Of a stretch of 30,818 nucleotides of DNA, positions 542 to 3,449 are shown piece by piece. The notes beneath the pieces were generated by a model that was not told the DNA's origin, did not search any database, and worked only from the letters and a program-made list of their open reading frames with translations. The stretch covers positions 1 to 30,818 of the IMG/VR virus record IMGVR_UViG_2565956711_000013, one strand, 5' to 3'. This DNA comes from a virus (lineage: Duplodnaviria > Heunggongvirae > Uroviricota > Caudoviricetes). The first letter of the stretch is position 1; every line of letters starts with the position of its first letter. Made by a program: the position numbers and the translations under genes.

Positions 542-1579
542 TTAACGCTTATCCGCCACCAGTTTGAGCGCGTGTTCCAGCACATTAATGTCTGCACCCG
601 CTTTATGGGCGTTTTCACTTAAATAACGCCGCCACTGCCGCGCGCCAGGAATACCCTGGAACAAGCCCAACATATGCCGGGTAATATGACCGAGATACGT
701 CCCCTGGCTGAGTTCACGCTCAATGTACGGATACATGGCGCGCACTACCGCCACCGGATCGGCATCGATATCCGAGGAACCAAAGATCTCCCGGTCTACC
801 GCCGCCAGAATACCCGGATTCTGATACGCCTCGCGCCCGACCATCACGCCATCCATATGTTGCAGGTGTGCTTTGGCCTCTTCCAGCGACTTGATACCAC
901 CGTTAATCGACATTGTCAGATGCGGAAAGTCACGCTTCAGTTGATACACACGCGGATAATCGAGCGGCGGGATCTCACGGTTTTCTTTCGGACTTAACCC
1001 CGAAAGCCAGGCTTTACGTGCATGGATGATGAACATCTCACACTCGCCTTTGCCGGAAACGGTGTTGATGAAATCGCAGAGAAATTCATAGCTGTCCTGG
1101 TCGTCGATGCCAATACGCGTTTTCACCGTCACCGGAATCGACACCACATCGCGCATCGCTTTCACGCAGTCGGCAACCAGCTGCGCATTACCCATCAGAC
1201 ACGCACCAAACATGCCGTTCTGCACCCGGTCAGACGGGCAGCCGACATTCAGGTTGATCTCATCATATCCACGCGCTTCTGCCAGCTTCGCACACTGCGC
1301 CAGCGCCGCCGGATCGCTACCGCCGAGTTGCAACGCTACCGGATGTTCTTCTTCACTATACGCCAGGTAATCACCTTTACCGTGAATAATCGCCCCTGTA
1401 GTTACCATTTCAGTATACAGCAACGTATTGCGGGAAAGCAGACGCAAGAAATAGCGGCAATGTCTGTCCGTCCAGTCGAGCATAGGAGCAATGCTAAACC
1501 GAGAACTCCAGTAAGCGCCAGTTTTTTCAGGCATCACGCTGGTTTGATTAGTTTTCTGTGTTTCAGGATTATCGTGCAT
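542..1579 (-). CDS. dusA: tRNA-dihydrouridine synthase A (host gene; its 5' end abuts the prophage integrase)
   Basis: 345-aa ORF with Dus-family TIM-barrel features as I recall them ([17 protein letters not shown] motif); the nearer internal Met (MPEKTG) may be the true start. Confidence 0.9.
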
Positions 1580-1667: not shown

Positions 1668-2765
1668 ATGGCGTACTATAACATAGAGAAACGACTAAAA
1701 TCCGATGGCACACCACGCTATCGCTGTAATGTGATTATCAAAGAAAAAGGTGTTATCACTTACAGGGAAAGCAAAACATTCCCTAAACATGCTCATGCCA
1801 AAACATGGGGCACACAGAAAGTGATGGAATTAGATCTATATGGCATTCCATCATCAAATGCAGTTGACGGACTTACAGTCCGTGACTTACTACACAAATA
1901 TTTAAATGACCCAAATGCCGGAGGTAAAGCAGGCCGTACTAAAAGATATGTGCTGGAACTGCTTATGGATAGTGACATCTCCGCGATCAAACTATCTGAA
2001 CTGACAGAAAATGACGTAATTGAACATTGCAGGCTAAGAAACAACGCTGGCGCAGGTCCAGCAACAGTCAGCCACGATGTTAGTTATCTTGGCAGTGTTC
2101 TGGATGCGGCCAAACCTGTATACGGAATTAATTACACATCAAACCCGGCGAAAAGTGCTCGCCCATATCTACTTAAACTTGGTTTGATTGGTAAATCAAA
2201 CCGTCGTAATCGTAGACCAGCATCTGATGAACTGGACATGCTCATTGAAGGCCTTCAACAACGATCTACTCATAAATGCTCAAAAATTCCGTTCGTTGAT
2301 ATCCTCAAATTTTCTGTGTGGTCCTGTATGCGAATCGGAGAAGTATGCCGGTTACGATGGGAAGATCTCGACCAGGAACAAAAATCTATACTCGTAAGAG
2401 ACAGGAAAGATCCACGCAAAAAGGAAGGCAACCACATGAAAGTAGCCTTGCTTGGGGAAGCCTGGGATATCGTCCAACGACAGCCCAAAAAATCGGAATT
2501 CATTTTTCCATATAACAGCACTTCTGTTACTGCAGGATTTCAGAGGGTAAGAAGCAAATTAGGTATTAAAGATCTGCGATACCATGATTTGCGTAGAGAA
2601 GGGGCAAGTCGCTTATTTGAGGCTGGTTTTAGTATTGAGGAAGTCGCTCAGGTTACAGGGCATCGTTCATTAAACGTGCTATGGCAGGTATATACCGAAC
2701 TGTATCCGAAATCTTTACATAATCGTTTTGAAGAGCTCCAAAGGAGCAGAAATAAGACCTCTTGA
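1668..2765 (+). CDS. int: Tyrosine-type site-specific integrase, dusA-associated
   Basis: 365-aa ORF; C-terminal catalytic region with RYHDLRR and GHRS...Y consistent with a tyrosine recombinase; divergent from and immediately next to the 5' end of dusA. Confidence 0.85.
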   Translation: MAYYNIEKRLKSDGTPRYRCNVIIKEKGVITYRESKTFPKHAHAKTWGTQKVMELDLYGIPSSNAVDGLTVRDLLHKYLNDPNAGGKAGRTKRYVLELLMDSDISAIKLSELTENDVIEHCRLRNNAGAGPATVSHDVSYLGSVLDAAKPVYGINYTSNPAKSARPYLLKLGLIGKSNRRNRRPASDELDMLIEGLQQRSTHKCSKIPFVDILKFSVWSCMRIGEVCRLRWEDLDQEQKSILVRDRKDPRKKEGNHMKVALLGEAWDIVQRQPKKSEFIFPYNSTSVTAGFQRVRSKLGIKDLRYHDLRREGASRLFEAGFSIEEVAQVTGHRSLNVLWQVYTELYPKSLHNRFEELQRSRNKTS

Positions 2766-2813
2766 CACTGTTTATCCATACAGTTAAAAATAATACTGTA
2801 TACAAACACAGTA
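2762..2813 (+). promoter_or_regulatory. Promoter with two LexA (SOS) boxes upstream of the DinI-like gene
   Basis: -35 TTGACA at 2762-2767; two CTGT-N8-ACAG motifs at 2768-2783 and 2796-2811, the second (TACTGTATACAAACACAGTA, 2794-2813) close to the LexA consensus; RBS gaggg 2816-2820. Confidence 0.65.
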
Positions 2814-2826
2814 TAGAGGGACTTTT

Positions 2827-3075
2827 ATGCGTATTGAGATCTGCATAGCCAAAGAAAAAATGACTAAAATGCCAAACGGTGCTGTGGATGCGTTAAAGGA
2901 AGAATTAACCCGACGCATCAGTAAACGTTATGACGATGTAGAGGTGATCGTAAAAGCCACCAGCAACGATGGGCTTTCTGTTACACGCACCGCAGATAAA
3001 GATTCTGCAAAAACTTTTGTTCAGGAGACTCTGAAAGATACCTGGGAATCTGCTGACGAGTGGTTTGTTCACTAA
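2827..3075 (+). CDS. DinI-like SOS-inducible protein, 82 aa
   Basis: Small acidic protein ([11 protein letters not shown]...[10 protein letters not shown]) resembling the DinI family; preceded by SOS boxes and followed by a terminator. Confidence 0.8.
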
Positions 3076-3143
3076 TTAACACGTAAAATCGGTAACGGCT
3101 GGAAATCATTCAATACTCGCACTATCGAAAGTTCGCCAGCCAG

Positions 3144-3180
3144 CCGCAGCACGTTCTTGCATCCGACGTGCTGCGGTTTT
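3144..3180 (+). terminator. Rho-independent terminator after the DinI-like gene
   Basis: 11-bp perfect stem ccgcagcacgt (3144-3154) pairing acgtgctgcgg (3166-3176), 11-nt loop, then TTTT (3177-3180). Confidence 0.6.
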
Positions 3181-3449
3181 ATATAATCCCGACTGGTCCA
3201 GTTTCCAGACAACCAGGGTGTCTCCTGCCGATAGTGTCCTGAGCAGTTTTTTAAGCCCCGGCCTTTCGGACTTTGTACCGCTTATCTTGTCTTCAAAAAT
3301 CAGCTAGCATCCTGCGCAGTTCAGTGCATTACGTTGCAAATCGGTGTTCTGGTCATTTGTTAATACGCGAACATAGCCAATCCCCCCTCATCTGACAAAA
3401 ACGATAGTGACACTATTGGCTCGTCATTTCTTAATTTTAACGCTAATTA

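Follow-up and report, generated by a model that had tools for sequence, protein, structure and literature searches.

LexA-regulated dinI genes carried by phages are already documented. The dinI homologues of Gifsy-1, -2 and -3 belong to the Salmonella SOS regulon, being LexA-regulated and induced by mitomycin and DNA damage, with operators of heterology index 3.9–5.3 (PMC3121763; PMC8072944), and LexA regulation has also been reported for PhiKO2 (PMC7556043). Here, we describe a dinI cassette at positions 2762–3180 of a 30,818-bp prophage-containing stretch of DNA (IMG/VR record IMGVR_UViG_2565956711_000013; "the window" below is this whole stretch), which is at most a minor variant of these genes. 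The cassette comprises a predicted promoter with two LexA boxes, a gene for a DinI-like protein of 82 amino acids (aa) and a structured 3' untranslated region (3'UTR), and it lies next to the integrase gene. We consider it very likely that the cassette is a two-operator, LexA-controlled dinI moron (a self-contained accessory transcription unit of a phage) whose product is, by homology, a modulator of RecA filaments. Sequence and comparison point to this reading through the anatomy of the cassette, the quality and conservation of its operators, the family membership of its product, purifying selection on the coding sequence and the mobility of the unit as a whole.

The initial annotation had described a consensus -35 hexamer, two CTGT-N8-ACAG motifs and an 82-aa gene adjoining the integrase, and we found each of these elements exactly as claimed, with TTGACA at 2762–2767 and the boxes at 2768–2783 and 2796–2811. 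From 2755 to 2830, the sequence runs GACCTC, TTGACA, CTGTTTATCCATACAG, TTAAAAATAATA, CTGTATACAAACACAG, TATAGAGGGACTTTT and ATG, where CTGTTTATCCATACAG (2768–2783, box 1) and CTGTATACAAACACAG (2796–2811, box 2) both match CTGT-N8-ACAG perfectly. The centers of the two boxes are 28 bp apart and both boxes fit within 44 bp, with box 2 beginning 3–4 nt past the putative -10 element; the operators overlap the core and the start of the predicted promoter. A promoter scan paired TTGACA with AAAAAT across an 18-bp spacer, giving 10 of 12 consensus matches, and the GenBank record of mEp460 annotates the equivalent 29 nt as a promoter.

Exact CTGT-N8-ACAG matches occur twice in the 30,818-bp window, both times at the dinI promoter, compared with 0.36 expected from shuffles; two or more matches anywhere turned up in 5 of 100 shuffled sequences. 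We scored 20-mers with a matrix of the Berg-von Hippel type that we derived from 30 LexA sites of E. coli, obtaining approximate heterology indices of 3.1 for box 2 and 5.2 for box 1, alongside 4.8 for recA and 4.1 for sulA on the same scale. Approximate as they are, the values of both boxes fall below the index of ~15 taken as the threshold for LexA sites (PMC11002266). A matrix scan of the whole window, which the initial annotation had proposed as a check, put the next best site after the dinI pair at 11.9. As a positive control, a symmetrized version of the matrix recovered both operators of the host lexA gene in L003, the record with the closest complete relative of this prophage. Neither the exact motif nor the matrix scan revealed a further LexA box in the window, which therefore contains no LexA-controlled antirepressor.

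The operators are conserved in homologous promoters, both near and far. Among 86 closely related loci, we found 26 distinct upstream variants, with the CTGT and ACAG arms intact in all but two. Substitutions at these loci cluster in the central N8 of box 1 and in flanking positions, and the arms of box 2 are almost invariant among related cassettes; the pattern is to be read qualitatively, as indels spoiled a first attempt at per-column diversity and the non-homologous flanks of divergent members blurred a second. We sampled 80 diverse DinI-homologue loci at one genome per species; in 69 of them, one or more LexA boxes lie no further than 150 nt before the start codon, against a background of 0.005 per equivalent stretch. 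The commonest layout in this sample is the chromosomal type, with one box ending 18–21 nt 5' of the ATG. The two-box layout, in which TTGACA is fused to the CTGT of box 1 and box 2 follows 26–28 bp on, is restricted to the phage clade of 81–82-aa proteins and is kept at 58–72% protein identity in Erwinia, in Mixta and on one mislabelled contig; a box 1 abutting TTGACA is also present in phi80 dinL and in the Erwinia and Mixta homologues. The proposed LexA control of dinI is thus strongly supported in silico by the quality of the operators, their position over the promoter core and their conservation in close and distant relatives. LexA would presumably bind this promoter, and DNA damage would induce the cassette.

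The assignment of the 82-aa product to the DinI family was likewise borne out. The protein matches the Pfam DinI profile PF06183 along its entire length (positions 1–63 of 63; E = 1.2e-19; 70.8 bits, cutoff 24.2) and PHROG 189, "RecA filament binding protein DinI," over positions 71–149 of 151 (E = 4e-31). A phmmer comparison with the solved E. coli DinI, 1GHH, gave a full-length match over residues 1–81 (E = 8e-13), in which the C-terminal stretch aligns with TWESADDWFV of 1GHH, the acidic helix contacting RecA. Identity to K-12 DinI is 47%, and the C-terminal W-E-S-A-D-x-W-F helix is kept in an alignment of five homologues. Over 44 distinct alleles, the ratio of nonsynonymous to synonymous polymorphism (pN/pS) is 0.14, indicating purifying selection on the dinI coding sequence. 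On the strength of these matches, the protein probably binds RecA.

The cassette has the features of a mobile unit. Homology to other phages begins at 2759–2762, at the -35 hexamer, and in most loci ends at 3176–3184, just past the T-run of the hairpin. In 15 loci whose upstream context differs, homology to the window again starts at 2759–2762. The left recombination boundary, at 2759–2767, falls inside the last codons of the integrase gene. The neighbors of the cassette vary: mEp460 has a side tail fibre gene there, the cdtI phage has cdtABC, Stx2a phages have nleC and other E. coli have an intact pinE. With a predicted promoter and terminator of its own, different neighbors and sharp homology boundaries, the segment 2762–3180 is in all probability a moron in a cargo slot flanked by the tail-fibre genes on one side and by the integrase/att end on the other. 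We found the cassette at 92–98% nucleotide identity in mEp460, the cdtI phage and many Stx phages. Phage records matching all or part of it number 215, of which 67 contain at least 80%, many of them Stx1 or Stx2 phages. Among 5,426 complete E. coli genomes, 1,409 (~26%) carry at least 80% of it. It is among the most widespread morons of the lambdoid and SfV-like prophages of E. coli, including Stx and Cdt phages.

The description of the gene as ending in a strong terminator holds in part. A terminator-like hairpin is present at ~3142–3178, followed by TTTT and ATATAAT; it begins 67 nt past the stop codon, however, its T-tract is short, and a simple terminator scan missed it, finding no terminator after dinI, as the loop of the hairpin is too long. 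The 105 nt past the dinI stop fold into two hairpins (z = -4.5). The loop of hairpin 1, CATTCAATACTCGCACTATCG, is near-invariant over 87 distinct variants, an apparent conservation that is biased by the core used to find copies of the module. RNAalifold on a MAFFT alignment of the 87 variants collapsed through hairpin indels, and we used per-sequence folding instead, by which a terminal hairpin of 8 bp or more forms in 81 of 85 variants, from many different stem sequences.

Judged by its distribution, the segment 3083–3180 is a separately mobile two-hairpin module of ~95 nt. Copies without dinI occur in lambda (NC_001416 24162–24256, minus strand, between ea31 and ea47), HK75 (L092:2001–2097), HK542, HK446, mEp234 and the Stx2 phages 1717 and 2851, and in phi80 the module (L091:2001–2099) follows the divergent dinL gene. 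In total, 73 of 205 collected copies have no dinI-like gene upstream, and a few copies of dinI have no module. In lambdoid phages, the module usually lies where the late/tail-fibre region meets the int/b-region. The K-12 chromosome holds a relic between ecpE and ykgJ, on the downstream side of the ecp fimbrial operon (L087:2431–2661 / L089), consisting of a decayed dinI-like fragment (residues 34–82) and the module, which is better preserved than the coding remnant. A partial match of the relic type is found in nearly all complete E. coli genomes, with 5,243 of the 5,426 matching some part of the cassette, and the relic has no RefSeq annotation at the loci viewed. We considered and rejected its identification as the small RNA (sRNA) EcsR2 (PMC4350180), which lies in the yagU-ykgJ region, on the other side of ykgJ.

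At gathering thresholds, Rfam returned no match across the whole window and none on the plus strand for the module. A weak match to CssrB, a Shigella chromosomal sRNA, at 3145–3204 on the minus strand (E = 0.003; 26.7 bits, gathering score 76) covers only the terminal hairpin of CssrB, which corresponds to the dinI terminator hairpin read as its reverse complement, suggesting that this hairpin also terminates transcripts arriving from the other side. The 36-aa "capsid protein" predicted on the minus strand at 3072–3212 by the Prokaryotic Genome Annotation Pipeline (WP_233398944.1) is probably spurious, given the indels and compensatory changes of the hairpin region. In the literature, we found no published function for the 3'UTR module, which may be a terminator or 3'-end stabilizer, a retroregulator, a recombination linker or an sRNA.

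We propose the following course of events for the dinI moron. In the resting lysogen, host LexA dimers would occupy the two high-affinity operators and close a strong sigma-70 promoter, one operator filling the spacer between -35 and -10 and the other lying over the transcription start; two strong operators on a consensus -35 predict tight repression and a large dynamic range. DNA damage would activate RecA, LexA would cleave itself and the promoter would fire, producing a monocistronic mRNA of ~380 nt with its end at the 3142–3180 hairpin. By homology, the acidic C-terminal helix of the 82-aa protein would dock on RecA-ssDNA filaments, and this docking would modulate filament stability and co-protease activity on UmuD, LexA and CI-type repressors. 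Expression of dinI might fall late in the SOS response. Beside cro, the closest complete relative has a gene for a cleavable CI-like repressor of the S24 type, and induction therefore presumably proceeds through RecA-stimulated repressor cleavage, a step open to the action of DinI. It is plausible that the phage DinI tunes RecA-dependent induction, as the initial annotation suggested, and the consequence for prophage induction may be small.

Several points weigh against this reading. The -10 element is weak and ambiguous, the rebuilt matrix reproduces published index values only roughly and hence serves for ranking only, and LexA binding, the transcription start and induction are, for this cassette, predictions from sequence. 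The T-tract after the terminal hairpin is TTTT in the window and variable in relatives, and the efficiency of termination is therefore uncertain. On the protein side, the score against NCBIfam NF007893, the equivalog model of chromosomal DinI, is 72.5 bits, below the cutoff of 111; the protein is therefore a member of a phage paralogue clade and not a chromosomal orthologue, and identical biochemistry to chromosomal DinI is not guaranteed. Finally, induction reporters were not significantly affected when the dinI homologue of Gifsy-1 or Gifsy-3 was removed by a non-polar deletion (PMC3121763), making a measurable role in induction doubtful.

The initial annotation had further combined the dinI gene with a LexA-like protein encoded at 28554–28880 into a phage-borne SOS-modulation circuit. 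The protein itself is real, with 43% identity to LexA residues 1–69. It keeps S39, N41, A42 and E45 of helix 3 and R64 and G65 of the wing, which we take to be DNA-contact residues of the LexA-operator structure. It is equivalent to orf42 of SfV. Its family is tight, comprising enterobacterial proteins of ~106–108 aa without an S24 domain, and we found no characterized phage protein consisting only of a LexA DNA-binding domain (LexA_DBD) in the literature. An AlphaFold2 model (predicted local distance difference test score 78) has a winged helix followed by a floppy linker and, at the C terminus, a conserved helical hairpin, which might act as a dimerizer. The gene stands in overlapping-codon register, translationally coupled, between those for Dam and RusA in the delayed-early block and is therefore a lytic-phase gene, and its product could be a noncleavable LexA mimic in lytic growth.

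By contrast, the circuit is not supported, as the two genes are 25 kb apart and assort independently. The LexA-like gene occurs in SfV, SfII and SfIV; in SfV, it stands in the same Dam-LexA_DBD-RusA block, and the full annotation of that phage has no dinI, gtrABV taking its place. Conversely, the ~14 Stx1a/Stx2a phage records listed for the dinI cassette are all absent from a near-complete list of phages with the LexA-like gene; Stx2c phages, mEp460, the cdtI phage and others carry both. The SfV and Stx1a/Stx2a patterns thus mark dinI and the LexA-like gene as independently assorting modules. A functional link between them is conceivable, its basis being only the shared DNA-recognition residues. 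In phages with both genes, one could picture a timed SOS-override circuit, in which LexA cleavage would fire dinI and a noncleavable, dimeric LexA mimic would then re-occupy the SOS boxes, including the dinI pair, so that DinI would be expressed in a short pulse and the host SOS regulon would be shut down in lytic growth, with the 3'UTR module released in parallel as an SOS-induced phage RNA. We regard this scheme as distinctly improbable.

Other readings shift the weight from the dinI protein or from host LexA. The module at 3083–3180 might itself be the payload, as an SOS-induced sRNA like DinR or as a sib-like retroregulator or stabilizer, leaving the protein secondary. DinR, which arises from the 3' end of K. 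pneumoniae dinI mRNA by processing (PMC10907235), provides a precedent, and the two-hairpin fold, the near-invariant hairpin-1 loop, the maintenance of the terminal hairpin by many different stems and the persistence of the module in K-12 beyond the adjoining dinI remnant would all suit such a role. But the many copies without dinI, such as the one in lambda, indicate that the module is not tied to a LexA promoter, and its apparent conservation carries the search bias noted above. Hfq binding requires a U-tract, which many variants have only in short form or lack, the module matches no Rfam family on its strand, and it has no similarity to the DinR sequence. A predicted duplex with the ftsZ translation start was no better than shuffles, in a test of low power that likewise did not separate the DinR positive control. 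Taking these points with the purifying selection on the dinI coding sequence, we judge an RNA payload to be unlikely. Alternatively, the boxes might not be host LexA sites, or not only that: they could be fortuitous palindromes, or operators through which the phage LexA_DBD protein controls dinI in lytic growth. The helix-3 and wing residues kept by that protein, together with the intact winged helix and possible dimerizer of its model, would be compatible with operator binding. Chance, however, is ruled out by the conservation of the boxes and their family-wide pattern, the two-box promoter is present in the listed Stx1a/Stx2a phages, none of which is on the near-complete list of phages with the LexA_DBD gene, and SfV has LexA_DBD without the cassette. 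Moreover, the isolated N-terminal domain of LexA binds operators weakly, and operators for anything but host LexA are very unlikely here.

The cassette could also be imagined as an SOS trigger that encodes or co-encodes an antirepressor, as in Gifsy (the dinI-gfoA operon) or 186 (Tum). Homologues of dinI under LexA control stand first in antirepressor operons of Gifsy-1, -2 and -3, and Tum of 186 is a fusion of an antirepressor with DinI (PMC3121763); the PHROG 189 profile, at 151 positions, clearly includes such fusions. The 82-aa protein, however, matches only the DinI half of that profile, the Tum-type N-terminal half being absent, and no plus-strand open reading frame of at least 20 aa lies between the dinI stop (from 3076) and the terminator. 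The window thus holds no dinI-antirepressor operon of the Gifsy type, the S24-type CI-like repressor of the closest complete relative needs no antirepressor, and in PSP3 the antirepressor activity maps to a non-DinI gene (PMC3121763). We give this possibility almost no credence.

The dinI moron thus remains our preferred reading, and its setting is that of an SfV-like prophage. The window opens on its left with chromosomal DNA of E. coli, namely pspG and then dusA (542–1579, minus strand), and the prophage, running from ~1600 on, is integrated in the 5' end of dusA with its integrase pointing away from that gene. The TGA stop of the integrase (2763–2765) lies inside the -35 hexamer TTGACA of the dinI promoter. 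Complete E. coli genomes contain identical or near-identical loci, in which RefSeq gives the order dusA, integrase, DinI-like family protein, decayed recombinase and tail fibre assembly. The window is 99.5% identical to prophage L003 over 1–22533 and ~97% identical to Shigella phage SfV across the head, Mu-like tail and nin-like regions; by these comparisons, the prophage is an SfV-like phage with a dusA-specific integrase. As a mosaic, it combines a head of the HK97 type with a contractile tail of the Mu type and lambda-like early genes. In L003, the prophage lies ~4 kb from the host lexA-dinF operon. L003 also has a third good LexA box, CACTGTTTATTTTTACAGTA, at 27301–27320 (approximate heterology index 5.2), overlapping the opening codons of a DNA methyltransferase gene close to the lysis genes, in a place where the window has another segment (22.5–25.5 kb). 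The slot between tail fibre and int holds the O-antigen genes gtrABV in SfV and a dead pinE invertase plus the dinI cassette in the window. The pinE-type invertase gene, convergent with dinI, has been reduced to its N-terminal part, which contains an internal stop, and is ~345 bp shorter than the intact version (L002); in this region, 1,782 query bases span 2,127 bp of the intact record, aligned in two pieces. The tail-fibre inversion switch of this prophage is dead.

Table 1. Features of the dinI cassette and of other genes discussed, in window coordinates
Feature	Position	Strand	Evidence
-35 hexamer TTGACA (consensus), also the left cassette boundary	2762..2767	+	Sequence; start of homology; promoter in the mEp460 GenBank record
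LexA box 1, CACTGTTTATCCATACAGTT, filling the -35/-10 spacer	2766..2785	.	Exact CTGT-N8-ACAG; approximate index 5.2
Probable -10 TAAAAA, 17-bp spacer; alternative AAAAAT at 2786–2791, 18-bp spacer	2785..2790	+	Inferred
LexA box 2, TACTGTATACAAACACAGTA, 17/20 consensus matches, over the predicted transcription start and early 5'UTR	2794..2813	.	Exact match; approximate index 3.1
Shine-Dalgarno-like AGAGGG, 6 nt 5' of ATG	2815..2820	+	Direct reading of the sequence
DinI-like gene, 82 aa, phage clade of the DinI family	2827..3075	+	Pfam, PHROG and PDB matches; RefSeq WP_001217539.1 "DinI-like family protein"
Conserved 5' half of the 3'UTR module; hairpin 1 with stem 3097–3102/3136–3141 and loop CATTCAATACTCGCACTATCG	3083..3141	+	Folding; 87 aligned variants
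GC-rich terminator-like hairpin and TTTT, right cassette boundary	3142..3180	+	Folding; end of homology
Tyrosine integrase	1668..2765	+	Open reading frame; Pfam Phage_integrase, E = 1e-20; RefSeq annotation of identical loci
Decayed pinE-type DNA invertase (context only, outside the cassette)	3187..3381	-	RefSeq annotation of identical loci
LexA DNA-binding-domain-only protein, 108 aa, in the Dam-LexA_DBD-RusA nin-like block	28554..28880	-	Pfam LexA_DNA_bind only

Overall, the observation of an SOS-type dinI gene next to the integrase is confirmed and its control by LexA is well supported; RecA modulation is argued from homology, the circuit is speculative, and the feature is a common one. The cassette conforms to a textbook pattern in which temperate phages set accessory genes under the control of host LexA. 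Should the phage DinI shift the co-protease activity of RecA measurably, induction thresholds of Stx phages, cross-talk between co-resident prophages and SOS mutagenesis would be affected in roughly one in four E. coli strains. The pair of conserved operators could make the promoter usable as a tight, high-contrast SOS reporter and would offer a handle on the purpose of phage DinI. Both the mobile 3' hairpin module and the LexA_DBD-only protein, for which we found no characterization in the literature, are cheap to test.

Among described systems, the nearest are phages with the cassette itself. Gene 21 of mEp460, the cdtI phage, 2H10, SKA5 and many Stx1 and Stx2 phages have the same unit from the -35 to the terminator in the same position between tail fibre and int, differing from the window in their flanks (side tail fibre, cdtABC or nleC, compared with a pinE remnant). 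Database records of mEp460 and numerous other phages already contain the exact cassette with a DinI-like label; its LexA boxes are unmarked in the annotations viewed. Our literature search found no paper describing or testing the two-operator layout of this E. coli cassette and nothing relevant on the dinI of Stx phages. In phi80, dinL ("RecA filament binding protein DinI / MsgA," NC_021190) repeats the arrangement of the window, with a LexA box abutting TTGACA, a DinI-like gene and then the 3' hairpin module, and it is likewise convergent with a tail-fibre gene and near a pin invertase and int. It differs in having one box, without box 2, and a protein only ~29% identical, and GenBank marks its box as a "predicted LexA binding site." Chromosomal E. 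coli dinI (b1061; 1GHH; 7YWA, same sequence) shares the fold family, the acidic C-terminal helix and a LexA-repressed promoter, but its -35 is TTGTCA, its only box overlies the -10 and its 3'UTR is short, leading directly into the terminator.

More distant parallels share one or another part of the design. In K. pneumoniae, the dinI-DinR locus (PMC10907235) has a LexA-controlled dinI mRNA with a structured 3' end, as in the window, and DinR is a functional RNA; the two 3'UTRs, however, are unrelated in sequence, and the module of the window type is also found away from dinI. The din-like gene of PhiKO2 and p60 of Serratia phage OS31 are DinI-like genes placed opposite to and after the tail-fibre genes with a LexA box upstream, as here, although these phages are of other types with other hosts and OS31 p60 is translationally coupled to a second gene. 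Tum of 186 and the split tum/dinI of Fels-2 and PSP3 (PMC3121763) are also LexA-controlled phage genes with a DinI-like domain, but Tum is 146 aa long and has an N-terminal antirepressor half that is absent in the window. The Gifsy prophages (Lemire et al. 2011, PMC3121763) resemble the window in placing a DinI homologue behind a LexA box. There, dinI has one box and is the first gene of an operon with a small antirepressor (gfoA, gftA) and irsA, ~1.3 kb past the replication genes, whereas the dinI of the window is monocistronic, has two boxes, lies at the int end and belongs to a prophage whose closest complete relative has a repressor of the cleavable type.

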